Positions 26,617 to 47,042 of a stretch of DNA of 64,000 nt are shown piece by piece. Numbering within the stretch: the stretch's first letter is position 1; the number at the start of each line of letters is the position of its first letter. The notes beneath the pieces are model-generated. The model did no database searches. It was given only the letters and a program-made list of their open reading frames with translations, and was not told the origin of the DNA. The stretch is from NCBI GenBank assembly GCA_021463465.1, contig JAJTYH010000003.1, positions 275,549 through 339,548 on the forward strand, read 5' to 3'. The translations under genes and the position numbers were made by a program. The DNA is from a bacterium (lineage in GTDB: Bacteria > Patescibacteriota > Dojkabacteria > SC72).

Positions 26617-28038
26617 ATGAAAACTGTGCATAAAACACAAAAGTGTAGGTATTATGTTGAAGGGATGCACTGTTCTTCATGTGAAATATTGATTGAAAAG
26701 AAACTAAAAAAGCTTGAAAATATTCATGCAGTTAATGCTTCCTTGAGTAGGGGTGAGATTGATATTGAGTTTTCTGGGAAGTCTCCTGATCCTAAGTTAA
26801 TTGATCAGATGTTTCTTGATAATGGTTATACTTTTTCACTTAACCCCAAAAGTGCACCGCCTCTACCTTTTTTGTTCAAATTTGCTGAGGGTAGGCTTAT
26901 TTTCAGTAAAAGTGGACTTTTCAGTGCCTTTAAAGGAAGCTTTTTAATATTGTTGATTCTCATGGGCGTTCTACTTATTGATGGCTCAAAGCTTGGGGGA
27001 TATATTTCAATTTCGAACACGTCTTCACTACCGACTTTTTTTATTTTTGGTTTGATTGCGGGTATTTCTAGCTGTGCCGCATTGGTTGGAGGACTCTTGC
27101 TTTCTGTGTCCCGAAATTGGAGTGATATGTATATTGATCAAGATACATTTTGGAAACGGAGCATTCCTTTTATACTTTTTAATCTAGGAAGGCTAATCGC
27201 ATTTGCATTACTAGGTGGATTACTCGGATATTTGGGTTTAAATCTGGGATTTGGCTTTGTACTAAAGCCAGCTGTCACCGCTGTCGTTATCAGTTTGATT
27301 TCAATTTATATGTTGATTTTAGGAATGGGTCTTCTCGGTTTTGATTTTGTGAAGAAGCTTCGATTAAGCTTACCAAAGAGAATCACCTCAAAGATTGTCA
27401 GTATGGAAGATTTGAAAGGGAAATATGTCCCATTTGTAGTTGGCTTACTAACATTTTTCCTGCCTTGCGGGTTTACACTTAATGCCCAGGCAATTGCATT
27501 AACTTCTGGCTCCGTTTTGGATTCCATGTTAATGATGTTATTCTTTGCTTTAGGAACTTTACCAATACTACTTCTAATTAGTTTTAGCTCTGTAAAGATA
27601 GCCCAAAACCCTAAACTTAATGCAACATTTAATTTTGTTGCAGGTGTAGTCGTTGTTATTTTTGCAGTCTATAATTTTAATGCCCAACTAAATGTACTAG
27701 GCTTACCAAGCTTTTCAGACTTCAAAGTTAAAAGTGTCGGAAATAGTTATACATCTATAATTAATGATTCTACGCAGCTACTAAAAACCACAGCAACTTC
27801 AGAAGGATATTCACCTTCTGAAGTGATTGTAAAAGCTGATGTACCAATCGATTGGGAAATTACAGATACAGGTGCATCAGGTTGTACTAATGCGATTATT
27901 TCAACTCAGCTTCTTGGTGATAAAAGGGTAACGCTGGTGCCAGGGGTAAATAGTGTAAAGTTACCTGCATTGAAGGCGGGAGTTTACAAATACAGTTGTT
28001 GGATGGGAATGTATCAGGGTGTAATTAAAGCGATATAG
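26617..28038 (+). CDS. Heavy-metal-associated (HMA) domain fused to a polytopic membrane domain (TauE/DsbD-like) and a C-terminal Cys/Met-containing beta domain
   Basis: The N-terminal GMHCSSCEILIEKKL shows the HMA MxCxxC motif. About 8 TM helices follow, then a C-terminal domain of about 100 aa with SGCTNAI...YSCWMGMYQGV. Confidence 0.6.
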   Translation: MKTVHKTQKCRYYVEGMHCSSCEILIEKKLKKLENIHAVNASLSRGEIDIEFSGKSPDPKLIDQMFLDNGYTFSLNPKSAPPLPFLFKFAEGRLIFSKSGLFSAFKGSFLILLILMGVLLIDGSKLGGYISISNTSSLPTFFIFGLIAGISSCAALVGGLLLSVSRNWSDMYIDQDTFWKRSIPFILFNLGRLIAFALLGGLLGYLGLNLGFGFVLKPAVTAVVISLISIYMLILGMGLLGFDFVKKLRLSLPKRITSKIVSMEDLKGKYVPFVVGLLTFFLPCGFTLNAQAIALTSGSVLDSMLMMLFFALGTLPILLLISFSSVKIAQNPKLNATFNFVAGVVVVIFAVYNFNAQLNVLGLPSFSDFKVKSVGNSYTSIINDSTQLLKTTATSEGYSPSEVIVKADVPIDWEITDTGASGCTNAIISTQLLGDKRVTLVPGVNSVKLPALKAGVYKYSCWMGMYQGVIKAI

Positions 28039-28923: not shown

Positions 28924-30267
28924 ATGACACCACGTTCTAAGAGATTACTTTTCCTAGCGTTCTCTTTTTTTCTGCTACTGTGGTACTTTTTACCTGAAAT
29001 CACATTAGTAACTAAAAGTATATTCATAAATAGGGCTAATACTTTAAGTGCTGAAATTAAGCCATTTGTGATGAGTCAAGGAGATAGGTATAAGATTGAA
29101 ATTGAAATTCCAGCTAATTTTAATCTTGACATTTCGCAATCTAAAATTGTACTCACAGGGTCGGAATATATTCTAAAAAGTGATATCGAAGATTACGTAT
29201 CTTTTCTGAGTCGTAATATTGTTCTAAACAGAGTGAGTATGGGACAAATGAATAGTCAGTTGGAAGAGGATAGGCTTAAGCTAGCCTTTGAGGATCAAAA
29301 CACTATTCCAAAAGGGTACTCACTGATTGCAGAGGTATACTTAGTTTCTAAGGATGGAAGGGTTGAATATTACCCCCAAGTTGTCAGCTTTGATCCTGAT
29401 TTTATTGAATACTTTGTATCACGGTTTTCGTATTTAATTCAGTACTACATATGGTTTATAGCCATCTTTGGCTTCACGTTAAGTAATAGCGTTTGGTCGA
29501 CAGTGTACGACTCTAAAAGCAAGAAGCCGCTTTCAGGGGCAATTGTCCGAGTTAGTTCAAAGGGCTCATTGTTACATACTGTAGTTACTGGTGTTTCTGG
29601 GGTAATAAACATGAAATTGAAAAAGGGTAAATACAAAATTCATGTAACAAAGGCTGGATATACTTTCCCAAGTAATCTTAAACCCCTTGCAAATGACGGC
29701 TACTACCAGAATCTCTACTACGGGAGTGACTTCCAAATGGGGTCAACTTCAAATATGAAACTAAACATTCCTCTTGATCAATTAGGTGTTCTGCGAGAAG
29801 TAAAGCTGGGAGATAAAGTAAGCTCTTTTGCTGTGTCAGTGGTTAGTGGATTGAGTCCTTTATTGCTTGTTTTTATCACCATCTCGCAAATTATTGTATG
29901 GCCAAATTATATTGATTCTTGGATTTTCGCTTCTGTAAGTGCGTTACTTTTATCATTAAGGTACATTCTAAATGCAGAAGGGAAAGTTTATCCAGGTAAG
30001 GTGGTAGATTTAAATGGTAAACCAGTCTCAAATGTCCAGATTGTAATTTATAATCGTGAATGGAATAAGGTGGTAGATAGGGTGATTAGTAATAGCGAAG
30101 GTGAGTATGAAGCCCTACTACTAAAAGATAAGTACTACGTTAAAATTGCTAATCCTGATTTAGAATTAGTCGGAGTGGGACCTGAGGGCAAACTTAAGGT
30201 GAAAGGCTTGCTTAAAGGTCAGATTCAATATATTAATGACAGACTGGTAGTCAGACCTAAAAGCTAA
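28924..30267 (+). CDS. Membrane protein with two CarboxypepD_reg/Cna-B-like domains flanking TM segments
   Basis: VYDSKSKKPLSGAIVRVSSKGSLLHTVVTGVSGVINMKLKKGKYKIHVTKAGYTF and VVDLNGKPVSNVQIVIYNR...GEYEALLLKDKYYVKIAN are paralogous to the C-terminus of the 23411-25228 product. Confidence 0.5.
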   Translation: MTPRSKRLLFLAFSFFLLLWYFLPEITLVTKSIFINRANTLSAEIKPFVMSQGDRYKIEIEIPANFNLDISQSKIVLTGSEYILKSDIEDYVSFLSRNIVLNRVSMGQMNSQLEEDRLKLAFEDQNTIPKGYSLIAEVYLVSKDGRVEYYPQVVSFDPDFIEYFVSRFSYLIQYYIWFIAIFGFTLSNSVWSTVYDSKSKKPLSGAIVRVSSKGSLLHTVVTGVSGVINMKLKKGKYKIHVTKAGYTFPSNLKPLANDGYYQNLYYGSDFQMGSTSNMKLNIPLDQLGVLREVKLGDKVSSFAVSVVSGLSPLLLVFITISQIIVWPNYIDSWIFASVSALLLSLRYILNAEGKVYPGKVVDLNGKPVSNVQIVIYNREWNKVVDRVISNSEGEYEALLLKDKYYVKIANPDLELVGVGPEGKLKVKGLLKGQIQYINDRLVVRPKS

Positions 30268-32061: not shown

Positions 32062-33615
32062 ATGGACAAGGCAAAAGCTGAAAATATCAATTCAGAAATC
32101 GCTCAAAACGAGAGCCCTTTAGATGTACAATCAATTATTACAGAGGAAGTTGTACGCGCTTACCCTGAGTCAAACGATATTGCTGATTTGACACAATTCT
32201 ACTCAAAAGTAGGTGAGCTTTTGGAAACAGGGGAAACGATTTTTTCAAAGGATCAAGGTAGAGAGTGGAAGCTTATGAGAGCCATTGTTCATAGCGGTAG
32301 AGAAGCGTTAAGAAACGAATCAACTCACTTTCATGTTGAAAATATGCTAAGAGGGGTTTTTACACCTGAAGAAGTAAATAAGTATTTGGACAATGAAATT
32401 AATCAGCTCGTAACGCCACTAGGAATAATTGTGTTTTCTGAAGATGGCCGTATGGAGTTAAAACCTGGTAATTTCAGAGAATCAGTCGCTTCTAATGATG
32501 GAGTGATATTTAGCATTTTACCTGTTGAAGAAGATTTAGCTCCTAATGTGCAACCAGTATCAATGCGGTCACATGTCGGAGGTCAACCCCCTGTGCGGAG
32601 TGTAGGTAAACAAAGAAGGGACATTAGGTCTTCGCCTGCGGCGGTTCTAAGTTCGTTTGCTTTGATGCTGGGTAGTATCACCAGCTTAAATCAAGCTGTG
32701 AATGCAATCCCAGTTCATCAATCAAGGGGTGAAGCTATTAAAAATGTAATAACAGTCAGTCCATTAGAACAAAAGCCAAGTGATACTGTTAAAATTGTTA
32801 GAAGGTACGAGGGTGGTATAAGAAAAGATTCCAAAGAGGAGATAGATTTAGGTGGTATCAATTTTATGAGTCCAGAACCTTTAACGATAAAGGAAAAGCG
32901 TAATTTAGTACAGCTTCAAGCAGATCTAGAGTGCCCAAGGAATGTAGTACCACTTCCCGCAGGTGTAATTGAGGTACCAAATATGCCTCAAGGAACGTCT
33001 GCCTGTGTTTTCCTTAATCCTATTATTGATGAAGAGGGAGTGATTATTGGGCACGAACCTAATAGTGGCCGGCTCATTGTACATATAGACGATGGTAGCT
33101 CCTTAGATGTTTTCAACGTATGCAAGTCGAGAGTCTTAAACGATGAAGATTTAACAGGCCGTTGTGTTAGACAGTTTGAACTTGGTACAAAGGATAAACT
33201 TATTGCAATGCAATACGCTTCTGGTCCAACGAAAATAGTTTTGAAATTTGAAAATCGAATACTGAAACTGAAAGAAGGTGGATTTTTCGGCGAAGATAAA
33301 GGGGTTGATATTGAGGAGCTTGTCGAAGGGATAAGGACAGTTGGTTCATTAACTGATGAGCAACGAAATCAAATTTTATCTACACCAACACCTATCTTAA
33401 CCCCTAAGCCTACAAAAACACCAAAAGTTTTTGCAACTGAAGTAGATGAATTAGACGATCCATCTCTTTCGGCTGAAGAGAGGGCTGAGATAATTAGGAT
33501 TAGGCAAGAAAAAAAAGATAAAGCCAACAGCTTTTGGCTTGGCACTGCAATTACTATCTTTGCACTTCTTGGGGTAGGTACAGCTGTCTATAACTCTCGT
33601 CACCAAGTAGGGTAA
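32062..33615 (+). CDS. Hypothetical protein with a single C-terminal TM anchor (tail-anchored)
   Basis: 517 aa, soluble and charged, ending in FWLGTAITIFALLGVGTAVY. First gene of the surface-protein locus. Confidence 0.5.
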   Translation: MDKAKAENINSEIAQNESPLDVQSIITEEVVRAYPESNDIADLTQFYSKVGELLETGETIFSKDQGREWKLMRAIVHSGREALRNESTHFHVENMLRGVFTPEEVNKYLDNEINQLVTPLGIIVFSEDGRMELKPGNFRESVASNDGVIFSILPVEEDLAPNVQPVSMRSHVGGQPPVRSVGKQRRDIRSSPAAVLSSFALMLGSITSLNQAVNAIPVHQSRGEAIKNVITVSPLEQKPSDTVKIVRRYEGGIRKDSKEEIDLGGINFMSPEPLTIKEKRNLVQLQADLECPRNVVPLPAGVIEVPNMPQGTSACVFLNPIIDEEGVIIGHEPNSGRLIVHIDDGSSLDVFNVCKSRVLNDEDLTGRCVRQFELGTKDKLIAMQYASGPTKIVLKFENRILKLKEGGFFGEDKGVDIEELVEGIRTVGSLTDEQRNQILSTPTPILTPKPTKTPKVFATEVDELDDPSLSAEERAEIIRIRQEKKDKANSFWLGTAITIFALLGVGTAVYNSRHQVG

Positions 33616-33674
33616 AGGACAAGTCACTGCCACTACGAAAATCTTCTTTTTTTTGGTATTGTAATTGTGAAATT

Positions 33675-36600
33675 ATGATGTCGTGGAGAACAAAAAGAAG
33701 GTTAATGCGTCTATGGGTCGCACTGCAATCTACCTTATCAATGAATGGGTATAATCAACGCCGCAAATTTCCCCAGAATCGCTTAGGTATCCAGTCAAAT
33801 ATACGAGTTGTTGGTAAAACTTTAAAGTTTGGTACAGCTATAGTGCTTGCTATCTTGATTAGCACTTTTCTGTTTAGAATTGTTAGCGCCGAAATCCTTT
33901 TAACTAACGAACGTAATCGACTTGAGTTTAAATCAAAAAGTAACAGTTTCCTTTTTGATCAAATTCCTATTGTGGAAATAAAGGATACAAGATACGTATT
34001 AGGAAGTATTAAGAATGTACTAGGTGCAACTACTCAAAACATAAATGAAGGAACAAGCGTAAAACTTATTGATCCAATTGGAAATCAAGTAAGCGGTGCT
34101 ACTATCTTTAATGTTTTGGGAAATAAATATCAGGTCAAAGTACCTGAAAACGTAGATTTTGTCCCAGGTAAATATCGTCTTTTGATTGACTCTCAAGGTA
34201 GGCATGTTGAGAAGGACTTTACCTGGGGAGTTTTAGCCGTCAATACAAATAAAAGTGTTTTCACACTCGGAGAAAATGTGTTTTTGCAATTGGCCTCATT
34301 AGACGAAAAGGGTCATACACTTTGTAACTCCAATCTAAAATTAAAGATAACCTCTCCAAATGGTGGAGTTGAATACACTGAAGTTCGTAAGAGCGGCGAT
34401 TGTTTTGATGATAACGTTACACTTAAGGCAGATTATTATAGTAACTTCGAACCAACCCAGATAGGATCCTATGTTATTCAATTAACAAATTCAGACTTAG
34501 GCTATACTATTTCAGATTCATTTAGAGTGGAAAAGTCTGTACCATTTATTATTGAGCGGTTTGGTCCAACTCGTATCTTTCCTAAGTCAGATTACAAGAT
34601 GAAGATATTCGTAACAGCGAATACTGATTACGTTGGAAAGGTAGAGGAGCTGGTCCCGAGTTCTTTTAAGGTTAATCAAAAAACAATGGAAGGTCTAAAT
34701 GGTAAGTTGTTAACTTGGGATGTTAACCTTAAAAAAGGTGAATCTAAAAGCGTAGAGTATATTTTTGACGCTCCAGATATCTCACCCGAACTTTATGTAA
34801 TCGGTCCGTTGAGAATAGGGGAATTTTCTGAATATAGAACATGGAAAGTTGCTTCGGATATTGTCGCAACATTGACTGATACTTATTTGCAAACAGGTAC
34901 TTGGGTTGCACCAGATGGTGTGACAAGTGCAAGTGTTGAGGTTTGGGGAGGTGGCGGAGCTGGTGGTGGTGCAACAGGGAACCCAGCTGCGGGGGGAGGA
35001 GGTGCTGGTGGTACATACGCTAAAAAAGCTAACTTTTCGGTTACTGCTGGAAATTCGTATACAACAACAGTAGGAGCAGCTAAAACTGCAACAACGACTA
35101 GCAGCGCTTCTACAAATACTGGAAATGTATCTTGGTTTAGTTCGAATGATACTAATGGAGTAGTAGGTGAAGGTGGTCCTGGAGGCGCTCCAGTTTCAGC
35201 TAATAGTTCAAACGGAAACGGTGGTACTGGTAGTACAGCAAATAGCTTTGGTGATGGAGGGTCAGTTTTTGCAGGTGGAAATGCATCAAATGGTAACTTT
35301 ACATCGGGCACACCGGGAGGTGCTGGTGGAGGAGGAGCAGGGAGTAGTGGAGTTGGTGGTAATGCATCCGCAGGAACTGGAGGAACTGGTTCAAGCACTG
35401 GTGGTGGAAATGGAGCCAATGGTGTAGCTAATAGTACTGCCGGCGCGGCAGGTACAACTTACGGTGGAGGTGGGTCTGGTGGAAAGGCTAATAGTACGAC
35501 TGATAGGGCAGGTGGTACAGGTGCAGCGGGAGCAGTTGCTGTTACATATTCAGCAGATTTCCCAAAAGTGGAAGCTACATCTACTGGCCGTGACTCCACT
35601 GATGCGACAAGCCATACGATTACAATGCCATCTGGAATAAATGTTGGGGAACTACTTATTATCGTATTTTCAGTTGATGGCAATCCTACTGTAACAATTG
35701 GCTCTGGTAACTGGACTAAATTGGGTCAGGCAAGCAATGGTACTACAGTTACTCAAGCCATATTTTATAAAGTAGCTGAGGGTAGCGATACGGCAACTGT
35801 GTCTACATCCTCAACCCAAGAAGCCTCTCATATTGTGTATAGGATTAGTGGTGCTGGTGATACAATTAGCGGTACATCTGCAAATGGTAGTAGTACAAAC
35901 TCAAATCCTCCAAACCACAATCCTGGTACCACCAATAATTACTTATGGATTGCTACTCGAGGTGGTGATGCTCAGGTTGTAGCTTCAGTTCCACCAACGA
36001 ATTTCGCCAATTATAAAAGTATTGGAGCACAAAATTCGACAGGTGCATCATCAAATACCTCAACTAGAGTACATCAGGCATCGAGTTTAGACCCAGGTAC
36101 GTGGACAAGTACGACTGAACAGTGGGTAAGTTATACGATATCCGTTCCGCCTCCAGTAACCTTAAGCGGAGCAGTTTACACAGATGAAATAGGGACAAAT
36201 ATTGGAGCAAATAAAACCGTCGATATACGGATTAATGGTACAGGATCGTATACCGATGAAACAGACAATAGCGGAGCCTGGACTATAAATGTGCCATCAA
36301 TAGCATCAGGGGCTGTAATTACTGCATATCTTGATGACGAAACAGAAGAAGGTACCATCGTTATGGTCTCTGATGGTACATCAAAAAGTGATATCCATAT
36401 AGTACAAAATAGGGTTTTTGTTAGGCATGATACTGGATCTTCCATTACACCTGACAATCTATTTAGTGGAGATGATGGAGATGATGATGTTAAGTACTCT
36501 GTTTCAGCTTCTTCGAATGGCAATTTAACAGTCGACTCTGGATTTGAGTTACATGTTTGGCCTGGTGATACTTTTGATGCAAGTGGTGGTAGCATTACTC

Positions 36601-39600
36601 TTCAGGGTGGAGCAAATCTGCATGTTGACGATACTGCTTCGGTTTACTTAGACACGAGTACAAACACTATTGCTGGTGATGCACTGATTGATGGAAGTGC
36701 TACATTGCGAATCAATGCAAATACGGATATCAATGGAGGTGACATAACAACTAGTGGTACTAATGCTAATGTTACAACCACGTCAGGTTCGCCCACTGTT
36801 ACGATTTCAGGAACAGGGAGTATTGGTGGTGGAACGACTCCGTCTTTTACATTTCATAACTTGAATACATCCGGCACAGGTACGACAACCCTCTCAAATG
36901 CTGTTACGGCAAATAACGATGTTACAGTTGGGAGTGGTACAACGCTTAGAATTAATTCAAATTTGAATGTTAATGGTGGAGATTTAGTAAATACAACTAC
37001 CGGAATTATTGATTACACTTCTGGAACGCCAACAGTCACTCTAACTGGCGCAGGAACTCTTGGTGGTGGGTCTGGTGGAATATCTATTTACAATTTAACT
37101 ACGAATGGGAGTAGTAACAGTACAACGCTTGCAACAAATAATATTGTAATCTCAAATGCTTTAAACGTTGGTACTTCTCATACTTTTGCTATGAGCACAA
37201 ATTCTCTAACAATAGGTTCTACTTCGATAAGTGATTCTGGAGATATTACAATGGCGACTGGGAGTTCTACCTCTCAATCAGCTTCAGGTACAGTAACAAT
37301 TTTAGGGTCTAGTAATGCCGCTGATTGGGCTGGTCCTGGGATATTCACCGCATACAACCTTACAATTGGTAACGGTAGTAATACATTATCTGTGGACAAT
37401 GAAACTGCTGATTTATCAATTGATGTTAATAATGATTTTAATATAACGGCAAATGCCACATTTAGTGCATCATCAAGTTCTTCTTTTACAGTTGGAAATA
37501 GTTATAGTAACTCAGGTACATTTACCGCAAATAGTGGTTTAGTAACGATGGACGCAGGAGATAGTGGGAACACACTCTCAGGATCTATGACCGGCAGTAG
37601 TACTTTCTATAATCTCAGGTTTAATAATAGTGCTGGATCCTGGACGTTTTCAAACAATGCAGATGTAGGTAATGACTTTACAATTACCGATGCAACGGCA
37701 GTAAATGCCCCTTCATCTTTAAGTGTTGCCAGAAATTTTACTGGTAGTAGTGCATTCACCCCGGGCAGTGGAACGGTAACACTTAGTGGCGCAGGTGGTA
37801 CCACACAAACATTGTCGGGCAATACGACTTTTTATAATCTAACTGCTAACGCCAGTTCCTCAAGAATAATTCAATTTACAGCAAGCTCAACAAACACGAT
37901 TAACAATAACTTAACACTAACAGGAACAAATTGTGATGCACTTATGCTTTTAAGGTCTACATCTAAGGGTACTGTTTGGAACATTGATGATAACACTGGT
38001 GGGACAACAACTGTAAGTAATGTTGATGTTCAAGACTCAACTGCAACAGACCAAGCAGTGACTGCGACATCGTCAAATAATTCTGGAAATAATGGCAATT
38101 GGACAATTGCGGCTTCGGCTTGTGAAGGGGGGAGCACCTCAATCACTCCTGTTTCGTATGGATTTCAGAGGAAAACTTTCTTTGATGATACAAATGATGT
38201 TTATTGGATGCTTTACCATGATGGTGATGAGATTGAGGTCAGATACTCAAGTGATACAGGAACAACATGGAATCTTCCTTCAACTTCAAGTAGTGCACAT
38301 CTTGCATATGATACAAGTGACTTTTCAGTATGGAATAAAACAATTAGCTCTACAGAGTATATATTTTTAGCACTAAAAGACGGCTTTGATATAAAAGTAT
38401 TGGTAGGTACTCTTTCCGCCTCAAATGTCACGTGGGATAATGATATCGATACCGTATTTGACGGTACTAGTAGTGGTGATACATTTTCATATCCGTACGT
38501 ATCGTTAGACTCTTCAAACTATGTTTGGGTGGGCGCAAGGTATTATGATGGGACCAATTACGTTTATCGTACATCTGATAGCAACGCTATCGGTAGTACC
38601 GACTTGTCATCGGTAGGTTGGAATCCATTCAAGCAGGTTATCAATAATCAAACAAATTCTAATGTCTATGGGAATATTGTTCCGCTTGCTTCTCAAGCTA
38701 TGTATTTAACAGTTGCAGTTGGAACCGCACTTCGTGGGTGTATTTGGGATGACAGTGCAAATGATTGGGTCGATTCAAATGATGTTAGTTGTACTACAGA
38801 ATCTGAGGAGTACTACTCAACACTAAATAATGGACTTATTTCATATTGGAGGATGGATGAGACCAGCTGGAATGGGACTAGTAATGAAGTTGTTGATTCA
38901 TCTGGTAATGGATTACATGGAGTTAGAGTAGGTGATGCTACGACAGAAAATAGTGGATTTTTAAGGTCAGGAACATTTGATGGATCTGGTGACTATATTG
39001 ACGCAGGCTCGCCAGCATCTCTTGATGATTTACCTAACAGTGATTTTACAGTCTCATTTTGGCATAAGTATAGTGAGACAGGTTCAGCAAATTTCCCAGT
39101 TTTTGTCGGTAAACGTAATTACTTGGGAAGTTATGGGTGGAATATAAGCACAGAAAAAACAAATAAGTATGTTAAATTAAACGTTTTGTATCCGGGTGGT
39201 ACTGATGCTCAATTTACAACCGATGACGATGCTTTTGCCGATGGTGTATGGTCACAGGTTACAGTCACATGGGATGCTTCAACGAAAACAGGTGAAATCT
39301 TTATCAATGGAATACAACCAAGTATGTATAACGAGGTTTCAGGCAGCGGGACCTACACCTCAGATGCATCTGAAATACTAAGGGTAGGACATGATAATGT
39401 GGGATCCCCATATAAAGGGAATTTAGATGAATTCAGAATATATGATAGGGTTTTGAGTACAAGCGAAATTTCGCAACTATATCAATATTATCCAGGCCCA
39501 ATTAATATTGATAATTCTTCTGACTTTGGTTCAATGCCCGGAGCGGGGAGGCAGATAATCAGGGCTGGTGATGGTGATATATACGCTTTTGTAAATGATG

Positions 39601-42600
39601 GTGGGAATTGTGAGATGTGGAAATCCACTAATAGTTTTACATGGACGCAGCAACAGCCAGGAACAACAATTACATGCAGTAACAGTAATGCAATCTCTAC
39701 TTCAATTGACGGAAATGCAGATATACATGTAGCCTATTTTGATGGTACTTCTTCATTAAAGTATCGACTTTATGATACTGCGACAGATAACTGGGACGGT
39801 GGTGTTGGGGAAGAGAATATCGTTACGGGTGACACTTATAGTTCTGTAGTAGTGTCAATTGACAGTAATAATATCCCTCATATTGCAGTTAGAACTACAA
39901 CAGGGGCCATAATCGGATACAACAATAGAATCGGTGGTACATGGAATGGTTCTTTAACTACGGTTGAGTCTACTTCAGTCACAGATTATTTAGATTTAAC
40001 TATAAATGAAAATAACTATCCTGCAATCTCATATATTACGAGCACATCGCTTGTTGCAAAAGAAGGGAATGCAAACGATGCTTCGTCATTTAACAGCTCA
40101 GGGACTATCGATTCAACTGTGAATACAACAGCTGGTCAAGCTGGCATTTCAATTGCGGTAGACAGTGCAAATGGCGATGAATGGGTAGCGTATATTGACT
40201 CGGGTGGGTCAGTAGCTCTCGCAAAACATAGCGGAGGAACATGGGGATCGGGATGGAGCACAGTTACAACTAAATCAGATATAGGCTCAGAACCGAGCAT
40301 AGCTCTTGCGTGGTCAAACGGGGTATATGTGTTCTATCAGGATGACAGCACTGATCAGAAAATTGTGTACGATTTCTACAATAGTAGTGGGAGTAGTCCT
40401 GCCTGGGTGGGGGAAAAAGTCCTTCTAACCCCAAGTAGTGGAGTTGATTATAAAGATGTAAAGGTGAGGTGGTCTTATTTAAATAACCCTTCTTATTCAA
40501 ACTATTCTTTTGAGTATTTAATTAGTGATAATACGGACTTATATTTCGGACAACTTTCTCTCCCAGATTGGTTAACTAACTGGAGTAAAAGGGTCCCGAT
40601 TGTTATCTCCAACTCAAACATTGATGCTGATTTGACTGCTTTTCCATTAAACTTGACCGTAACTTCAACTTCAGGGACCGCTGACGATGATATGACCCTA
40701 CTTTTTGATTCGCTTGGTGCAAATAGCAAAAAGATTGCAATTACAAAATCTGATGGTACTACAGAGTTATACGCTGAAGTACAACGCTGGGACACTACTA
40801 ATGAAATTGGACAACTGTGGGTTTCAAAAGAAGATTTCGTGCTTTCTGGCTCAACGGATACCACCTTGTACTTATATTATGATAGTAATCACGCTGATAA
40901 TACAAACTATGTTGGGGATACAGGTTCCACAATCGCCGGTAAGGTGTGGGAACCTGGATATAAAGTTGTGGCGCATTTGGATGAAGCAGATGATACATCG
41001 AGGGTCGATGCATCAGGAAATGGGAATACAATGTCAGAAAGTGCTTCTGATACTGTAACCCAATATACCTCTGGGACACGAATTGGTGCGGATTTTGAGA
41101 GGGGTGATACAGAGTTCCTTGAAGTATCTGATAACTCAAGTCTTGAAATGAGTAATTTTACCTTTACTGCCTGGCTTAATGTTGAAAGCACTCAGAGCTC
41201 AGGAGGTGCGTATCAGGCTATTTTCACAAGGGGTGATGGAGGTAATTGGGCATACGGTTGGGCGACTGAATCGGATTCTATCGGAACGTTAATAGATGCT
41301 GATGGGTTTGCGGGGGGAGGAGCTTTGCCAGTGAGCGCTTCTTCTACATTTAATACAGGTGAATGGAATCTATTTCATGTCACTTATGATGGTTCGAATA
41401 TACGGCTGTATAAAAACGGTGTAGAGCTAACTTCTGGAGATTATCCATACGCTACAACTATTTCTATAAATCAAAATAGTACATCAAGTCTAAGATTAGG
41501 AAATTGGCAATCGCAATCTGGTTACTTTGATGGGATTATGGATGAAGTTATGCTTAATAGTGGAGCTAAATCTTCCGCATGGCTAAAGACAGATTATCAC
41601 TCAATGACTGACAATCTTGCGAACTGGGGGACTTCTGAAAGTGTTGCTTTTAGCACCTCCTCCCAAGATACAATTGATACTATCCCAGCTAATATAGATG
41701 ATAATTTTTCAGCAACAGTCGATTCTAGTAATAATGTCCACATTGCATATGTAGACGATGAAAGTACCGATCAAATTTCACATCGAAAGTGGACTAACTC
41801 TACTCAGACATGGGGTAGTGCAACACTTGTTCCAAGTGGAGCAAGTAATACTCATACGAATATAAGTATTGCAATAAACACATCGGCGGCAGATCTGAAT
41901 GATTTGTATGTTTCCTGGATTGATTCTTCAAATAACCACATATATTACCGACAGTATGATAGTTCGGCCACAAGTTGGTTAACTGTTCAGGATTGGAAAA
42001 CAACCGGTACTAATGTCTATCCGACTCTAAACTTCAGTGGTAGTGGAAGAGTATTTGCCCTTTGGAATCAAGGTACTTCTTCTCCTACTACTATTGATTG
42101 GGGTTCAATTTTAGCCCCGTCAGGAGGGAGTGCACCAACAGTTACAAGTGTAAGCTTAAATGGAGGGTCAACGATAACATTAACTGAAGGAACAACAACA
42201 AATATTTCAGTTGTCGGGACAGTTACTGACTTAGATGGTCATGCAAATATATCTACTGCAACAGCAAAGATTTATAGATCAGGTGTATCAGGTGCTCAAT
42301 CATGTTCAAATAGTGATAATAATTGTTACACAGTTGCTAGCTGTTCACTTAGCTCATGTGCTGGAAATACTTGTACAGCAACATGCACTGCACCATTAGC
42401 ATTTCATGCTGATGCAACTGATACTGGGAGTACATATGCATCAGAGTACTGGAGAGGTTGGATTGAAGCTACAGATGATGATTCAAATACAGGTTCTGGG
42501 TTTAGTAGCGTAGGGTCACCTGACCTTGCAAGTACTGCTGCTATGGATATAAGCTCTTCACTTGCTTTTGGCACGCTTTTAGCTGGTGATGACACCGGTG

Positions 42601-42932
42601 CATCTCCTCAGAATACTACTGTCACAAATACTGGAAATACAACACTTGATTTTGAAGTTTCAGGAGATGATTTATGTACTAACTATCCGACCTGTAGTGG
42701 GTCGCAAATAGGTGTTGGGTATCAGGAGTATAAGATTACAACTTTTACATACGGTGCAGGGACTGGATTAACTACTTCCCCAGTGACAGTTGATTTGAAT
42801 CTGAACAAATCTACTGCCGTCCCGTCTAATTCAACATCCTCCTTTTACTGGGGCATAGGAATTCCATCTCCAAAAGAGACTGGGGCGTATACAGGTGCTA
42901 ATACAGTAACGGCGTTAAATGGTGGTTCTTAG
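33675..42932 (+). CDS. Giant (3085 aa) multi-domain cell-surface protein with an N-terminal anchor, a Gly-rich module, beta-helix-like repeats, a BNR motif, 2 LamG-like domains, a DUF2341-like segment and a Cys-patterned C-terminal module
   Basis: A single uninterrupted ORF with an N-terminal TM or signal anchor. The Gly-rich block VEVWGGGGAGGG...GGGGAGGTY is at about 34900-35560. Degenerate repeats of about 65 aa (…TVT(I/L)(S/T)G.G.(I/L)GGG…FYNLT…) run from about 36780 to 38000. An Asp-box SSDTGTTW is near 38250. LamG-like jelly rolls lie at about 38835-39495 and 40960-41600. The DUF2341-like segment WLTNWSKRVPIVISNS...LYLYYDS is at 40560-40910. Confidence 0.8.
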   Translation: MMSWRTKRRLMRLWVALQSTLSMNGYNQRRKFPQNRLGIQSNIRVVGKTLKFGTAIVLAILISTFLFRIVSAEILLTNERNRLEFKSKSNSFLFDQIPIVEIKDTRYVLGSIKNVLGATTQNINEGTSVKLIDPIGNQVSGATIFNVLGNKYQVKVPENVDFVPGKYRLLIDSQGRHVEKDFTWGVLAVNTNKSVFTLGENVFLQLASLDEKGHTLCNSNLKLKITSPNGGVEYTEVRKSGDCFDDNVTLKADYYSNFEPTQIGSYVIQLTNSDLGYTISDSFRVEKSVPFIIERFGPTRIFPKSDYKMKIFVTANTDYVGKVEELVPSSFKVNQKTMEGLNGKLLTWDVNLKKGESKSVEYIFDAPDISPELYVIGPLRIGEFSEYRTWKVASDIVATLTDTYLQTGTWVAPDGVTSASVEVWGGGGAGGGATGNPAAGGGGAGGTYAKKANFSVTAGNSYTTTVGAAKTATTTSSASTNTGNVSWFSSNDTNGVVGEGGPGGAPVSANSSNGNGGTGSTANSFGDGGSVFAGGNASNGNFTSGTPGGAGGGGAGSSGVGGNASAGTGGTGSSTGGGNGANGVANSTAGAAGTTYGGGGSGGKANSTTDRAGGTGAAGAVAVTYSADFPKVEATSTGRDSTDATSHTITMPSGINVGELLIIVFSVDGNPTVTIGSGNWTKLGQASNGTTVTQAIFYKVAEGSDTATVSTSSTQEASHIVYRISGAGDTISGTSANGSSTNSNPPNHNPGTTNNYLWIATRGGDAQVVASVPPTNFANYKSIGAQNSTGASSNTSTRVHQASSLDPGTWTSTTEQWVSYTISVPPPVTLSGAVYTDEIGTNIGANKTVDIRINGTGSYTDETDNSGAWTINVPSIASGAVITAYLDDETEEGTIVMVSDGTSKSDIHIVQNRVFVRHDTGSSITPDNLFSGDDGDDDVKYSVSASSNGNLTVDSGFELHVWPGDTFDASGGSITLQGGANLHVDDTASVYLDTSTNTIAGDALIDGSATLRINANTDINGGDITTSGTNANVTTTSGSPTVTISGTGSIGGGTTPSFTFHNLNTSGTGTTTLSNAVTANNDVTVGSGTTLRINSNLNVNGGDLVNTTTGIIDYTSGTPTVTLTGAGTLGGGSGGISIYNLTTNGSSNSTTLATNNIVISNALNVGTSHTFAMSTNSLTIGSTSISDSGDITMATGSSTSQSASGTVTILGSSNAADWAGPGIFTAYNLTIGNGSNTLSVDNETADLSIDVNNDFNITANATFSASSSSSFTVGNSYSNSGTFTANSGLVTMDAGDSGNTLSGSMTGSSTFYNLRFNNSAGSWTFSNNADVGNDFTITDATAVNAPSSLSVARNFTGSSAFTPGSGTVTLSGAGGTTQTLSGNTTFYNLTANASSSRIIQFTASSTNTINNNLTLTGTNCDALMLLRSTSKGTVWNIDDNTGGTTTVSNVDVQDSTATDQAVTATSSNNSGNNGNWTIAASACEGGSTSITPVSYGFQRKTFFDDTNDVYWMLYHDGDEIEVRYSSDTGTTWNLPSTSSSAHLAYDTSDFSVWNKTISSTEYIFLALKDGFDIKVLVGTLSASNVTWDNDIDTVFDGTSSGDTFSYPYVSLDSSNYVWVGARYYDGTNYVYRTSDSNAIGSTDLSSVGWNPFKQVINNQTNSNVYGNIVPLASQAMYLTVAVGTALRGCIWDDSANDWVDSNDVSCTTESEEYYSTLNNGLISYWRMDETSWNGTSNEVVDSSGNGLHGVRVGDATTENSGFLRSGTFDGSGDYIDAGSPASLDDLPNSDFTVSFWHKYSETGSANFPVFVGKRNYLGSYGWNISTEKTNKYVKLNVLYPGGTDAQFTTDDDAFADGVWSQVTVTWDASTKTGEIFINGIQPSMYNEVSGSGTYTSDASEILRVGHDNVGSPYKGNLDEFRIYDRVLSTSEISQLYQYYPGPINIDNSSDFGSMPGAGRQIIRAGDGDIYAFVNDGGNCEMWKSTNSFTWTQQQPGTTITCSNSNAISTSIDGNADIHVAYFDGTSSLKYRLYDTATDNWDGGVGEENIVTGDTYSSVVVSIDSNNIPHIAVRTTTGAIIGYNNRIGGTWNGSLTTVESTSVTDYLDLTINENNYPAISYITSTSLVAKEGNANDASSFNSSGTIDSTVNTTAGQAGISIAVDSANGDEWVAYIDSGGSVALAKHSGGTWGSGWSTVTTKSDIGSEPSIALAWSNGVYVFYQDDSTDQKIVYDFYNSSGSSPAWVGEKVLLTPSSGVDYKDVKVRWSYLNNPSYSNYSFEYLISDNTDLYFGQLSLPDWLTNWSKRVPIVISNSNIDADLTAFPLNLTVTSTSGTADDDMTLLFDSLGANSKKIAITKSDGTTELYAEVQRWDTTNEIGQLWVSKEDFVLSGSTDTTLYLYYDSNHADNTNYVGDTGSTIAGKVWEPGYKVVAHLDEADDTSRVDASGNGNTMSESASDTVTQYTSGTRIGADFERGDTEFLEVSDNSSLEMSNFTFTAWLNVESTQSSGGAYQAIFTRGDGGNWAYGWATESDSIGTLIDADGFAGGGALPVSASSTFNTGEWNLFHVTYDGSNIRLYKNGVELTSGDYPYATTISINQNSTSSLRLGNWQSQSGYFDGIMDEVMLNSGAKSSAWLKTDYHSMTDNLANWGTSESVAFSTSSQDTIDTIPANIDDNFSATVDSSNNVHIAYVDDESTDQISHRKWTNSTQTWGSATLVPSGASNTHTNISIAINTSAADLNDLYVSWIDSSNNHIYYRQYDSSATSWLTVQDWKTTGTNVYPTLNFSGSGRVFALWNQGTSSPTTIDWGSILAPSGGSAPTVTSVSLNGGSTITLTEGTTTNISVVGTVTDLDGHANISTATAKIYRSGVSGAQSCSNSDNNCYTVASCSLSSCAGNTCTATCTAPLAFHADATDTGSTYASEYWRGWIEATDDDSNTGSGFSSVGSPDLASTAAMDISSSLAFGTLLAGDDTGASPQNTTVTNTGNTTLDFEVSGDDLCTNYPTCSGSQIGVGYQEYKITTFTYGAGTGLTTSPVTVDLNLNKSTAVPSNSTSSFYWGIGIPSPKETGAYTGANTVTALNGGS

Positions 42933-42986
42933 TTGACTTTGTGAGAATTTAATTAGTATATTGTAGGGATTAAATAGGAATAATTA

Positions 42987-44678
42987 ATGAAGCAGTTTCG
43001 TGTGGCAACAACCAAGTTTCTCCTTGTTATTGGGCTAACTGCTTTACTTATTCCAAACCTCTTCATTATATGGAATGTTATTGCAGATAGTGTTACGACA
43101 TCAGTTACTGTTGGGAATACGTCTCCTAGTTTTACGGTAGGACCAGCTGAAAATCCCGAGAGTTCGAATACCACCCCTACAAACGTTGGTGCTAATACGA
43201 CTTTCCAGGCTACTGCGACTGATAGCAATTCGGAAAATTATTACTTGATTTTATGCTCTACAAACTCAGTTTCTGCAACCAATGGCGGTGCTCCGACTTG
43301 TGGTGCGACTCAGTTTTGTGTTAGTTCCTCAACCGCAAGCGGAAGCCAGGCTTCATGCAATCGTTCTGCACAGGCTGGCGATGCTGAAAATGTTGCCTGG
43401 TACGCATTTGTTTGTGACGGAAATGCTTCAGCAGCAGCGTGTTCAAGCTCCAGTCAAGGGAGTGGTGCTACAGGATCACCCTTTGCTGTTAACCATGTTC
43501 CAGGCTTCTCTTCGGTAAGTAACGATGGGCCTAAAAATCCTGGCCAAACCGTTACATGGTCAACTACAGCTTCAGACACTGACTCAGCAGGTTCTGCTGA
43601 TACAGTTAAGCTAATTGTTTGTAAGACAACTGGACTTTCGGGAGATGCCTGCGATGGAGGTGGAAGTGATACATGGTGCTCAAGTTCTTTTGTTTCGTCA
43701 GATCCAACATGTGGATATGCCGTTCCCACGCCAACTGCTGATGGGGCAAATAATGCATATGTTTATGTAGTTGATAATCATAATTTTGGAGCTTCCTCAG
43801 GTAACCAAGGTAGTAATAGCTCCTTTACTGTAAACAATATTGCTCCAGTTGTATCTGGGGTAACATTTAATGGTGGTAGTGCCATAACTTTAACTGAAGG
43901 TACTACTACAAATATAACCATTGGCGCCACAATTACTGATAATAATAGCTGTACTGGTGGTGAAATTGCTACAACATATGGTTATGCATATAGGTCTGGG
44001 GTTGGATTTTCTGGGTGTGACACTTCTGGAGAATCTAATAATAACCATTGTTATGCGGAGGTCACATGTACTGTAACTGGTGGTACCTGTTCTGGCGCTT
44101 CGGATGCATCAGCTGATTATACCTGCACAGTAGCAATGCAGCACTATGCTGACCCAACGGATGTTGCGACCATATACCCTACGGAGAATTGGTTGGCATC
44201 GTTTAGGGCAATTGATGATGATAGTGCTGCTCATACAGTTGAAGTCTCGTCAGGCGTTGAAATGAACTCACTTACTGCTCTGAATGTCACTGGTTCAGTT
44301 AACTACGGAACATTAGATGTAAACCAAAGCAATGACCCACTTGATAAGATTACGACAGTTACACCTACAGGAAATGTTGGACTCGATGAAGAACTCTCGG
44401 GCGCAAATATGTGTACGGACTATCCAACATGTTCAGGTGGAATAATTGCTGTAGGTCAACAAAAGTATGCACTAGCAACATCAACTGCCTATGCAAGCGG
44501 TACAGCCTTGACAACTTCACCCGTAGAGCAAGAGTTAAATGTTCCGAAAGCTACATCCGGTTCCCCCACAACAAAAAATACATGGTGGGGTATATTAATC
44601 CCGCTTGGAACTACTCCGGGATCATATAGTGGAAGCAATACAGTTACTGCAGTCAAAGGTGAAACGGGAGGTTGGTGA
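42987..44678 (+). CDS. Secreted Cys-rich protein whose C-terminal roughly 280 aa are paralogous to the C-terminal module of the giant protein
   Basis: Signal peptide MKQFRVATTKFLLVIGLTALLIP. Residues from about 285 (nt 43838-44675) align at roughly 40-45% identity by eye with giant-protein residues at nt 42110-42929. Both include LNGGS.ITLTEGTTTNI and C(T/M)(N/D)YPTCSG. Confidence 0.7.
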   Translation: MKQFRVATTKFLLVIGLTALLIPNLFIIWNVIADSVTTSVTVGNTSPSFTVGPAENPESSNTTPTNVGANTTFQATATDSNSENYYLILCSTNSVSATNGGAPTCGATQFCVSSSTASGSQASCNRSAQAGDAENVAWYAFVCDGNASAAACSSSSQGSGATGSPFAVNHVPGFSSVSNDGPKNPGQTVTWSTTASDTDSAGSADTVKLIVCKTTGLSGDACDGGGSDTWCSSSFVSSDPTCGYAVPTPTADGANNAYVYVVDNHNFGASSGNQGSNSSFTVNNIAPVVSGVTFNGGSAITLTEGTTTNITIGATITDNNSCTGGEIATTYGYAYRSGVGFSGCDTSGESNNNHCYAEVTCTVTGGTCSGASDASADYTCTVAMQHYADPTDVATIYPTENWLASFRAIDDDSAAHTVEVSSGVEMNSLTALNVTGSVNYGTLDVNQSNDPLDKITTVTPTGNVGLDEELSGANMCTDYPTCSGGIIAVGQQKYALATSTAYASGTALTTSPVEQELNVPKATSGSPTTKNTWWGILIPLGTTPGSYSGSNTVTAVKGETGGW

Positions 44679-44698
44679 AGTTTATTTAAAGAAATTGT

Positions 44699-46105
44699 AT
44701 GATGTTTAGTATATTTATAGAAAGAATGAAAACTTTAGGAAAAACGATTACGACAATTGCATGCTTCTTATTAATGATGTCCCCGTCATTAGCGGGTTTT
44801 GGTGTCTCACCTACTAATATTTATAATGAATACTTAAAGCCCGGAGCACATTTTGAGAAGGTGGTGACACTTTCAAGATCTGATCCGTTTGAAGATTTAG
44901 ATATTGTTATCGAACCCAGTTTAGGAGAGATTAACTCTTGGTTTAGATTTGATCCAGGTCTTACCTTTGTTTTCCCTAAAGGCGAGAGTAGGAAAACTTT
45001 TAAAATAATCGTTGATGTACCACAAAGTGCTTCATATCGGGGATATGAAGGAGTTATTCGTGTAAAAGCTCTAGCTCGTGGTCAAGCTGTACAGGGGGTT
45101 TCAATTGTCAAGGGTGCAAGGTTAGATGTAGATTTGGTAACTACAGAGGTTTCAATCAGTGAATTGCAGATTAAATCACTAAAAATGCTTGATGCCAATG
45201 AGGGAGACCCTTTGAAGTTGGAAATTCTTGCAGAAAATCTTGGAAACGTTGCGGTATCACCTGATGCGAAGGTTGCAATAAAAAATCTACAGATGGAAGA
45301 TTTGGAGGAGCATGTTGACAATGATCTTGAATTTGTGCAACCAAACGAGAGTAAAACTTTATATGCTGAATTTAAATCATCACTTCCTCAAGGCGAGTAC
45401 TTTGTGGATGCATTTGTTCTAGTAGATGGTTCAGTGGTAAGGAAAGAAAGATTAGTTTTTAGAATTAATGCACCAGGAGAGAAAAGTGCAGATACTAGTG
45501 GTGGGTTAAGTACTGCTTTTGCAAACGGGATTTCTTTGTTGAGAGACAATGCTTCAATGATTGGGGTTTGCCTGCTATTTGCTATTGTTGCGTACTTCTT
45601 GATGAGCAAGCTGTGGAAGCAGGAGAGTATGGAAGATAAAAAGAATGAGTTATGGGCACCACTACTTGGCGTCAGAGCTAGTTCAAGAATTATTGTTTCC
45701 ATCCTAATTGGAATTTTATCAGCCGGAATATTCTGGTGGTTTAGTTCACACCCAATTCAGTTTGAAAAAGAGAGTAAAAAGAGCGACATTTCAGTACAGC
45801 CTAGTGGTGGAATCCCTTTGGAAGTTGTTGTATCAGAAGGTACAGATGTTAAAGGTGTGAAAGAGAAGATTGATAAATCTGATCCACTTGTGGTAAGTGA
45901 TAGGGATAAGGACGGAAAGGCGAAATATCCGATTTACGAAAGCCCAGATCTTAACTCAAATATTGTCTACTATGCTCTAGAAGATGAAAAGTTGGATGTA
46001 GTGGAGGAAAATGCTGATTGGTATAAGGTTGAAGTCGGGGATGGCGATATGGGGTGGCTTGAGAAATCAAAAGTAAAATCTAGTGTATCTCAAGAGATTC
46101 AATAG
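44699..46105 (+). CDS. Secreted or membrane protein with an N-terminal beta domain, two TM helices and a C-terminal SH3b-like domain
   Basis: The signal peptide is followed by TM helices near residues 280 and 330. The C-terminal DWYKVEVGDGDMGWLEKSKV is a bacterial SH3-like motif. Confidence 0.45.
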   Translation: MMFSIFIERMKTLGKTITTIACFLLMMSPSLAGFGVSPTNIYNEYLKPGAHFEKVVTLSRSDPFEDLDIVIEPSLGEINSWFRFDPGLTFVFPKGESRKTFKIIVDVPQSASYRGYEGVIRVKALARGQAVQGVSIVKGARLDVDLVTTEVSISELQIKSLKMLDANEGDPLKLEILAENLGNVAVSPDAKVAIKNLQMEDLEEHVDNDLEFVQPNESKTLYAEFKSSLPQGEYFVDAFVLVDGSVVRKERLVFRINAPGEKSADTSGGLSTAFANGISLLRDNASMIGVCLLFAIVAYFLMSKLWKQESMEDKKNELWAPLLGVRASSRIIVSILIGILSAGIFWWFSSHPIQFEKESKKSDISVQPSGGIPLEVVVSEGTDVKGVKEKIDKSDPLVVSDRDKDGKAKYPIYESPDLNSNIVYYALEDEKLDVVEENADWYKVEVGDGDMGWLEKSKVKSSVSQEIQ

Positions 46106-46108
46106 TAA

Positions 46109-46555
46109 TTAAGGATTTTTTATACCTTCCCAAATATTCTTTAAATCTGATATCGCTTTGGATTGTGGAATCATCCAGAAGTATAACCAGCCAGAAAGAC
46201 TTTTAGCTGTTGACTGAATATCCCATGTCAATCCTTTTGATTTGATATATTCAATTGCGGAGGAAATGGCCAAGATCTCTTCTTTATAACGAAACTCACG
46301 ATTGATTAAATACTTTAGCCCCCATTTAAATAATCCTATTGTTTGCTGGCGATCGATGTGTGTTTGCTCGTGTAGAATTCTAGATTGATGATAAAGGTTA
46401 GGTGTTTTAGATATGAGATTTTGGTAGACAGCTGGTGGAATATATATATTTGGATAAATAGCTGTTGCAGTGCTAAATCCAATCCATGGAATTAAATTCC
46501 AGTACCAATCTTTGACTTTAACGTTTTTAGATAGGTTATAAACGGTACTAGACAT
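46109..46555 (-). CDS. Hypothetical protein
   Basis: 148-aa ORF convergent with the surface locus, with no recognised motif. Confidence 0.4.
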   Translation of the reverse strand: MSSTVYNLSKNVKVKDWYWNLIPWIGFSTATAIYPNIYIPPAVYQNLISKTPNLYHQSRILHEQTHIDRQQTIGLFKWGLKYLINREFRYKEEILAISSAIEYIKSKGLTWDIQSTAKSLSGWLYFWMIPQSKAISDLKNIWEGIKNP

Positions 46556-46631: not shown

Positions 46632-47042
46632 TTACTGTATACAAGTGACCCCGTTTAGTTTTTCGAATGTTTTAATTGCGCCCTTACGGAGACAATCAGA
46701 TTGTATATATTCAATCTTTCCTTTGCATCCACCTTTGCCACATTCAGAACAGCTATAAGTCCCTTTTTTCTTATCAAATTTGCTCTCTGATTTATTCGAT
46801 AAAGCAATACCTGCACGCTTACTCCACTTACATGAGTATTTATAGGTTGGTTGCGACCAACAGGTATACACTTTGCATGCAGCACTTGCTGAGCCAGCAG
46901 CTTCTGAGTCTGTTTCGGACACATTTTTATTAATCAAAAGCTGATTAAGGGATAGCATTGTACCGAAAAAAATTATGATACCTGCTATTAAGAGGATGAA
47001 TGTAGGGGAGGATAGTTTGCTTGCTACTTTTCTTCTGGGCAT
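46632..47042 (-). CDS. Small Cys-rich secreted or membrane-anchored protein
   Basis: N-terminal TM/signal FILLIAGIIIFFGTMLSL, then 12 Cys within about 90 aa (…CSECGKGGCKGK…). Confidence 0.45.
   Translation of the reverse strand: MPRRKVASKLSSPTFILLIAGIIIFFGTMLSLNQLLINKNVSETDSEAAGSASAACKVYTCWSQPTYKYSCKWSKRAGIALSNKSESKFDKKKGTYSCSECGKGGCKGKIEYIQSDCLRKGAIKTFEKLNGVTCIQ

Follow-up and report, generated by a model that had tools for sequence, protein, structure and literature searches.

A conserved three-gene cassette of Patescibacteria resembles WxL gene clusters in its layout and might display giant surface proteins

WxL gene clusters of Firmicutes encode a large WxL protein, a small WxL protein that consists of the domain only and a WxL-interacting protein (WxLIP) with the architecture DUF916, DUF3324 and transmembrane (TM) helix, and the WxL domain is always C-terminal (PMC9772566, PMC10599100). 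Here we describe a gene cassette with a similar layout from the Patescibacteria (candidate phyla radiation, CPR). It lies in a stretch of 64,000 nucleotides of a Dojkabacteria genome (SC72; assembly GCA_021463465.1, contig JAJTYH010000003.1, forward strand positions 275,549 to 339,548), in the following called the window, and consists of the genes for a giant secreted protein (L), a cysteine-rich secreted protein (M) and a membrane-anchored protein (I). How Patescibacteria recognize and attach to their hosts is a central open question; as candidates, type IV pili and "large surface proteins" with adhesion domains have been named, the latter without further specification (PMC10633639, PMC13059738). 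Our literature searches returned general statements on very large surface proteins and no description of this cassette, of the module common to L and M or of the holder protein I. The best reading in our view is that the cassette is a sequence-novel analog of the WxL clusters, and we do not file it as one of them.

A preliminary description of the window had noted four consecutive plus-strand genes with short gaps, one of them coding for a giant of 3085 aa, and convergent genes that end the block. The open reading frames (ORFs) bear this out. Four plus-strand ORFs of 517, 3085, 563 and 468 aa follow each other with gaps of 59, 54 and 20 nt, the giant being encoded at 33675-42932, and two minus-strand ORFs come after them:

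32062..33615, plus strand, C-terminally anchored ORFan of 517 aa, adjoining the cassette and outside of it (no homologues in related loci)
33675..42932, plus strand, L, giant secreted protein of 3085 aa (ORF, hydropathy, Pfam)
42987..44678, plus strand, M, Cys-rich secreted core protein of 563 aa (family alignment, AlphaFold2 model)
44699..46105, plus strand, I, membrane-anchored holder protein of 468 aa (homologues, AlphaFold2 model, Foldseek)
46109..46555 and 46632..47042, minus strand, convergent ORFs which close the block (ORF list)

The alignment of the M family was scanned against species-representative genomes and gave 75 loci; gene order was surveyed in about 80 loci and the tblastn set comprised 81. 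The loci were classified by tblastn and by ORF classification with hidden Markov models (HMMs). Nearly all of the 75 loci belong to metagenome-assembled genomes (MAGs) of Patescibacteria. Dojkabacteria/WS6 are the commonest source, the others being Doudna-, Shapiro-, WWE3, Paceibacterota, Nomura-, Sung-, Staskawicz-, Yanofsky- and Peregrinibacteria, and a few third-party taxon labels, for example "Gammaproteobacteria", look unreliable. I follows directly after M for 49 of the 73 M genes with room downstream and after a second M for six more. We found the orders L-M-I, M-I-L, M-I-M, L-M-M-I, M-M-M-I and L-S-I, where S stands for a small protein with the module only, and the genes were co-oriented in every case (about 60 loci). 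These orders occur in MAGs of Dojkabacteria/WS6, Doudna-, Shapiro-, WWE3, Paceibacterota, Nomura-, Sung- and Peregrinibacteria. Every large protein adjoining M carries the same C-terminal module. Tandem copies of M are seen as M-M-I and M-M-M-I, and several genomes hold multiple cassettes and multiple M paralogues; within the window itself, HMMs of the cassette families (I, M and C-terminal module) gave no further match in the six-frame translation. The contigs of three homologues of I each have a large protein (1015-2433 aa) followed by a protein of about 550 aa and an SH3b protein of about 450 aa, and the genes flanking these three cassettes are unrelated from contig to contig.

The L-M-I cassette is thus widespread in Patescibacteria. 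Because the order is conserved in dozens of genomes, the grouping of the three genes is far beyond chance, and we hold it to be highly probable that the three proteins form one co-functional extracytoplasmic unit. That unrelated surface proteins merely happen to be adjacent is effectively refuted, as order and orientation persist in dozens of divergent genomes with differing flanks, and we give this explanation next to no credence. A scan of viral contigs for M relatives found none, and we therefore regard the cassette as cellular. In public records all three families are labeled only "hypothetical" or "SH3 domain-containing". In one locus (L005, 4925-8265) the large gene is split into 1060 and 53 aa, whereas a near-identical contig (L006, 1848-5189) has an intact gene of 1113 aa; the split is probably a frameshift or an assembly error.

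The preliminary description had counted the gene of 517 aa as a member of an operon-like unit of four genes, with synteny as the check. The synteny comparison retains the giant, M and I, whose co-oriented order is conserved as a unit, but not the first gene, which has 0 tblastn matches in the 81 related loci. The metagenome scan found no relatives of it either, and a HMMER search of 1.84e9 representative proteins returned only the protein itself and one partial match with 37% identity. We therefore do not count this gene, a lineage-specific ORFan, among those of the cassette. Pfam, NCBIfam and the PDB sequences (phmmer for PDB) gave no match. As described before, the protein has only a C-terminal anchor, a clear TM helix at residues 490-511. 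It lacks a signal peptide, and the hydrophobicity of another stretch, 191-209, is weak (Kyte-Doolittle 1.44) and below the usual threshold.

L and M share a C-terminal module (Cmod) of about 270 aa which comprises two beta-sandwich domains. The following features are needed here:

43086..43118, plus strand, mature N-terminal strand DSVTTSVTVGN of M, residues 34-44, candidate edge or donor strand (alignment)
43833..44678, plus strand, Cmod of M, residues 283-563, tail class ...KGExxNW-COOH (alignment, HMM)
42123..42932, plus strand, Cmod of L, approximately residues 2817-3085, short-tail class ending ...TVTALNGGS (HMM A3, E = 2e-122)

That M is a Cys-rich protein with a paralogous module had been seen earlier and is correct: M has 18 cysteines, 14 of them invariant across the family, and its residues 286-558 align to residues 2820-3083 of the giant with 43% identity (E = 5e-38). 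At the DNA level the two module copies have no repeat in common that would point to gene conversion or a diversity-generating retroelement; the paralogy is therefore old and at the protein level. The module of L is 44-67% identical to the C-termini of large proteins in the loci L002, L003, L006, L008, L014 and others. Two classes of tails exist. One, …KGExxNW with a terminal Trp that never varies, is found in the M types (44650-44678 in the window) and in some of the large proteins; in the other, seen in the giant of the window (42900-42932) and in the small types, the chain ends just past the last strand. The terminal Trp was considered as a possible peptide ligand of the SH3b domain of I; this was rejected, as the Trp occurs together with both types of I, with and without SH3b.

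M consists of a signal peptide (residues 1-33), a conserved N-terminal strand, two Cys-rich beta-sandwiches D1 and D2 which are homologous to each other, and Cmod (D3-D4) with the C-terminal Trp. The AlphaFold2 model shows four beta-sandwich domains (predicted local distance difference test, pLDDT, 88.7). The family has at least 521 members with 53-75% identity over the full length, across classes. In Pfam, NCBIfam and the PDB sequences nothing matches M. The D1-D2 pair is also found without the C-terminal module, namely in other giant ORFs of up to 4082 aa (L068, L070-L075 and L077-L079, for example L075 2-12247); Staskawicz- and Yanofskybacteria are among the sources of these giants.

For I the preliminary description gave a signal peptide, two TM helices and an SH3b-like motif, which our analysis supports with helices at about 283-308 and 319-351 and Pfam matches to SH3_4 (E = 4e-8) and SH3_3 (E = 2e-6). 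Both matches lie above the Pfam gathering scores (33.3 bits with a cut-off of 24.1 and 28.3 bits with a cut-off of 27). The AlphaFold2 model (pLDDT 82.5) and the homologues give the order signal peptide (SLA↓GFGVSP), two Ig-like beta-sandwiches (residues 35-126 and 138-257), TM hairpin, disordered linker and SH3b:

44795..45478, plus strand, tandem Ig-like ectodomain of I, residues 33-260 (homologues, AlphaFold2, Foldseek)
45545..45751, plus strand, two TM helices of I with a basic loop between them (hydropathy, AlphaFold2 helices)
45920..46075, plus strand, SH3b domain of I, residues 408-459 (Pfam SH3_4 and SH3_3)

We found 37 homologues of I, all metagenomic and of similar architecture, one of them labeled as a Patescibacteria MAG. 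The mature N-terminus GFGVSP is invariant and is retained as AGFG(V/I)SP in distant homologues of about 300 aa. An SH3b match is present in all 31 scanned homologues. The proteins with SH3b have an even number of TM helices (two helices, n = 29; six helices, n = 3), and 20 of 21 proteins without SH3b have a single TM helix and a basic tail. From this parity across the family we infer that the SH3b domain would be located outside of the cell, next to the wall. Holder variants of 627-632 aa with six predicted TM helices ahead of SH3b are encoded in L009 (4176-6071), L011 (2508-4388) and L017 (1560-3440). In a Foldseek search with the model of I, WxLIP structures (9i25_C and 9i1y) appear at ranks 2-4 with E = 2e-11 to 3e-10, and one of the matched WxLIP crystal structures is bound to a long WxL protein. 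PapD-like chaperones (FimC, CfaA) follow at E of about 1e-8.

In distant loci a minimal version of the cassette exists. A profile of the modules of the large proteins finds many proteins of about 300 aa (S) which comprise only a signal peptide, an N-terminal strand with the pattern A↓D[ST][AV][ST]T[SQ]V[TI]VGN.xP and the module. In three long contigs (L082-L084) S is preceded by a large protein with the module (885 to about 2480 aa) and followed by a tandem-Ig protein. The latter has 288-310 aa: after the signal peptide and AGFG(V/I)SP come two Ig domains and then, at the C-terminus, a single TM helix with a basic tail. The core design is therefore a trio of one large and one small protein with the module and a TM protein with tandem Ig domains. 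D1-D2, the additional TM helix and SH3b, as found in the window, are additions in some lineages.

Both the survey of gene order in about 80 loci and the loci L082-L084 show the WxL-type layout of a large, a small and an interacting protein with the shared domain at the C-terminus. As in the WxL/Csc clusters, there is a large adhesin-like protein with a C-terminal shared domain, a smaller protein with the same domain and a tandem-Ig TM protein; the components are secreted by Sec, clustered and co-oriented, and the cells are monoderm. The small protein of the minimal CPR cassettes carries the module and no other domain, again as in the WxL clusters. The differences are also clear. The patescibacterial module has about 270 aa in two beta-sandwiches, whereas the WxL domain has about 100-180 aa and two Trp-x-Leu motifs; near the C-terminus of the M family only a single [WY]WG[IL] motif is found and not the two-motif WxL domain. 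In the window, M as the "small" partner has two additional Cys-rich domains, I a second TM helix and SH3b, there is no gene for an LPXTG partner, and the phylum is Patescibacteria. The earlier statement that no component matches a named system holds for the sequences, but in architecture and, with low TM-scores, in fold the WxL/Csc clusters with their WxLIP would be a close analog.

We suggest with moderate confidence that the cassette displays surface proteins on a monoderm cell, with I holding the shared module of L and M and with the LamG-bearing giant as adhesin. L, M and I would all be exported by Sec, and I would remain in the membrane with its two Ig-like domains directed outward. In the version of the window, the chain of I would cross the membrane again so that the C-terminal SH3b could bind the cell wall. 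The module of L and M would be bound non-covalently to the Ig ectodomain of I, probably by beta-strand augmentation; candidate contacts are the invariant GFGVSP N-terminus and a conserved hairpin of I on one side and the conserved strand ahead of the module on the other. M (or S) would be the constant core of the complex and L an exchangeable mosaic adhesin, whose lectin-type LamG domains could face outward to a host cell or a glycan. We assign the holding function to I because L, M and S lack an anchor of their own, I is always encoded adjacent and the module is common to the secreted proteins. Beyond the signal peptide, no TM helix is found in L and M. A regular expression for LPXTG-like motifs matched none of the four proteins of the block (M ends in Trp and L in GGS), no sortase is among the scanned neighbor genes, and a class III signal peptide (G↓FTLIE-type) is absent from the first 80 residues of all four proteins. 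Probably the cassette has an adhesive role, toward hosts or glycans. The proposal of a surface attachment apparatus with anchor and accessory proteins, made in the preliminary description, is reasonable, as all three proteins have Sec-type signal peptides, the giant has LamG_3 domains and the membrane anchor carries SH3b.

Several observations weigh against the display model and the comparison with WxL clusters. Of 72 M genes, no more than 14 have a large protein with the terminal module as their immediate upstream neighbor; in the remaining loci L lies downstream of I, several kb away or outside of the captured stretch. The fold match of I is to the generic tandem-Ig arrangement, with TM-scores of 0.2-0.45 and a high root mean square deviation, and the full-length model of M gave only generic multi-Ig matches in Foldseek. 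WxL (PF13731) has no Pfam match in the giant or in the 563-aa protein, and lenient scans at E<=5 of 31 members of I and 41 members of M gave no match to WxL, DUF916, DUF3324 or PapD. Profile searches of the PDB (A1 for I and A3 for the module, E<=10) gave only SH3 noise and two glycoside hydrolase chains at E>0.2. A tblastn search aimed at WxL clusters of Firmicutes, with 72,556 plasmids as database, gave no match for either the Ig region or the module. Finally, the conservation of M is unusual for an exported or passive "core" protein and may point to self-assembly.

Such self-assembly could be realized in a donor-strand fiber. M would polymerize head-to-tail, each subunit placing its N-terminal strand in the module of the following one; L, with the module but without a free strand at its N-terminus, would be a FimH-like tip and I a PapD-like chaperone or base anchor. 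Few parts of M and S are as well conserved as the strand D[ST][AV][ST]T[SQ]V[TI]VGN, whatever domain comes after it; in M, T38, V40, T41 and V42 are conserved to at least 90% and G43 and N44 are invariant. The motif follows the signal peptide in the module-only proteins of about 300 aa as well and is absent from the large proteins. AlphaFold2 left it unplaced (residues 29-42, pLDDT <50), and it resembles the last strand and linker ahead of D2 and D3 (…FAVNHVP…, …FTVNNIAP…) and thus looks like an orphan strand. The chaperone matches of I, the tandem copies of M, which recall major and minor pilins, and the very high conservation of M would also suit a fiber. On the other hand, D3 and D4 have seven strands each in the model with no strand apparently missing, AlphaFold2 did not let the strand of M complement its own domain as it frequently does with pilins, and the cassette encodes no usher, sortase or other polymerization machinery. 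We regard the donor-strand fiber as doubtful. Going further, the cassette could stand for an unrecognized class of monoderm fibers, joined by donor strands of M, with the LamG giant at the tip, a PapD/WxLIP-like anchor and neither usher nor sortase, and this fiber could be the main host-attachment organelle of Patescibacteria; this proposal we consider unlikely.

Chaperone-usher pili share with the cassette a tandem-Ig protein, in view of the FimC/CfaA fold matches of I, an adhesin with lectin-type domains whose C-terminal module is also found in a smaller subunit, and a conserved N-terminal strand in the smaller subunit only. They differ in that the cassette has neither usher nor outer membrane, I is membrane-anchored and lacks sequence matches to the PapD family, and the acceptor domain shows no evident incomplete Ig fold. 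Pfam matches to usher-like or PapD (PF00345/PF02753) domains are absent from the cassette and its neighbors.

M might alternatively be the abundant subunit of a lattice of the surface layer (S-layer) type, with I as stalk in membrane and wall, similar to SlaB, and with L occasionally replacing M by means of the shared module. Ultra-small CPR cells are reported to carry S-layers. In the Sulfolobales SlaA/SlaB system a membrane-anchored beta-sandwich stalk is encoded beside a larger secreted partner, as in the cassette. M comprises four beta-sandwich domains and its gene has its own promoter-like site, I joins beta-sandwich domains, a TM anchor and a putative wall-binding domain, and the Deinococcus HPI S-layer chain is among the fold matches of M, at rank 49. 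S-layer proteins, however, usually show little conservation, in contrast to the 53-75% identity of M across classes, and several cassettes and M paralogues per genome fit a repertoire better than a single lattice. No sequence or specific fold match to SlaA/SlaB is known, and these genes also differ from the cassette in that the latter is multi-copy and M far more conserved. Known S-layer domains were not found: the four proteins of the block have no Pfam or NCBIfam match to SLH or another curated S-layer domain, and a lenient Pfam scan of 41 M members had none. A lattice thus appears quite unlikely to us, and we keep to the display of L and M by I.

In the display model L is the exchangeable cargo. 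Its signal peptide has a long N-region, a hydrophobic core at about residues 52-72 and the site VSA↓E. In relatives about 400 aa at each terminus are conserved, and the middle is common block-wise or not at all; comparison of the sequences indicates that this middle is a mosaic passenger region. The domains of L are:

34890..35147, plus strand, Gly_rich_2 domain, L residues 406-491 (Pfam, E = 4e-7, 30.7 bits with a cut-off of 24.3)
38979..39473, plus strand, LamG_3 domain 1, concanavalin A-like lectin, L residues 1769-1933 (piecewise Pfam, E = 1.9e-22)
41196..41579, plus strand, LamG_3 domain 2, approximately L residues 2508-2635 (Pfam PF13385, E = 6.2e-12, last piece)

With the whole protein PF13385 (Laminin_G_3) is above the gathering score in two stretches (E = 3.1e-34). 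Ahead of the Gly-rich domain lies an MG2-like Ig domain (residues 190-285), which with E = 1.7e-4 is below the cut-off. L also has an Asp-box-like SSDTGTTW at residue 1525 and weak matches to 3-keto-disaccharide hydrolase and DUF2341. These domains could also be read as signs that the same assembly captures or degrades polysaccharides for nutrition and does not serve host attachment. A function of this kind was originally suggested for the Csc/WxL clusters in Lactobacillus plantarum, and Siezen et al. (2006; PMC1534035) proposed that Csc clusters serve in carbohydrate utilization. The LamG_3 domains, the Asp-box-like motif and the two weak matches of L would suit such a role, as would weak matches to the GH123 N-terminal domain in 18 of 41 M members (lenient Pfam scan). 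However, no catalytic glycoside hydrolase domain exceeded any threshold in the Pfam scans, and the neighboring genes are unrelated housekeeping genes and not sugar transporters or kinases. We consider a nutritional function very unlikely.

In display of the cellulosome type, an anchoring scaffoldin has a wall-binding SLH domain and the cargo a C-terminal dockerin. Variable cargo with a conserved C-terminal docking module and an anchor with a putative cell-wall-binding domain are found in the cassette as well. The module is a double beta-sandwich and not an EF-hand dockerin, and the cassette of the window has no cohesin or dockerin. In L082-L084, genes for dockerin-like and weakly cohesin-like proteins adjoin the cassette:

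L082, 9825-10838 and 15430-16290, dockerin-/cohesin-like genes
L083, 9916-10770 and 11684-13720, dockerin-/cohesin-like genes
L084, 9881-10786 and 11694-13784, dockerin-/cohesin-like genes

Near these minimal cassettes there are proteins of about 300 aa which end in dockerin-like repeats (…DFNKDGRTNLIDFSILLYWWGK…), and beside their genes multi-TM proteins of 678-696 aa with weak Cohesin matches are encoded. These genes appear to form another docking system within the same island of surface proteins.

For the giant proteins of Patescibacteria the cassette would offer a concrete mechanism of display, made up of a conserved C-terminal docking module, a conserved partner and a dedicated anchor in membrane and wall. 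The module also provides a sequence handle with which the adhesin repertoire of any CPR genome could be cataloged. If the parallel to WxL reflects a homology too old for sequence methods, the WxL system would extend across monoderm phyla. If it is convergence, the design of large protein, small protein and tandem-Ig anchor would be a recurrent solution.

Some features of the window outside the three coding regions should be mentioned. In the gap between the gene of 517 aa and the giant (33616-33674) a run of T is followed by TATTGTAAT, and a promoter-like site precedes M:

42933..42962, plus strand, promoter-like site TTGACT-18-TATATT in the gap before the 563-aa gene (10 of 12 matches; a lead only)

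Both gaps might indicate that the giant and M each have a transcription start of their own, but the scan of the region for promoters and terminators gave no more sites than expected from shuffled sequence. Two plus-strand genes ahead of the cassette should also be noted. The first (26617-28038), about 5 kb from the cassette, codes for a 473-aa fusion of HMA, DsbD_2 (a membrane region for thiol-disulfide transfer) and a cupredoxin-like domain, and this protein could conceivably handle the many conserved cysteines of the cassette. The second (28924-30267) codes for a surface-type membrane protein of 447 aa with CarboxypepD_reg and SpaA-like prealbumin-fold domains. Downstream, the convergent ORF at 46632-47042 (minus strand) encodes a protein of 136 aa with an N-terminal hydrophobic segment and many cysteines, for which Pfam and NCBIfam gave no match. 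Between 52000 and 56000 the GC content drops to 0.31, compared with about 0.37-0.40 elsewhere, and the genes of this part are on the minus strand; among them are those for a zinc-ribbon protein, an unannotated protein of 373 aa and an M48/M56-type peptidase.

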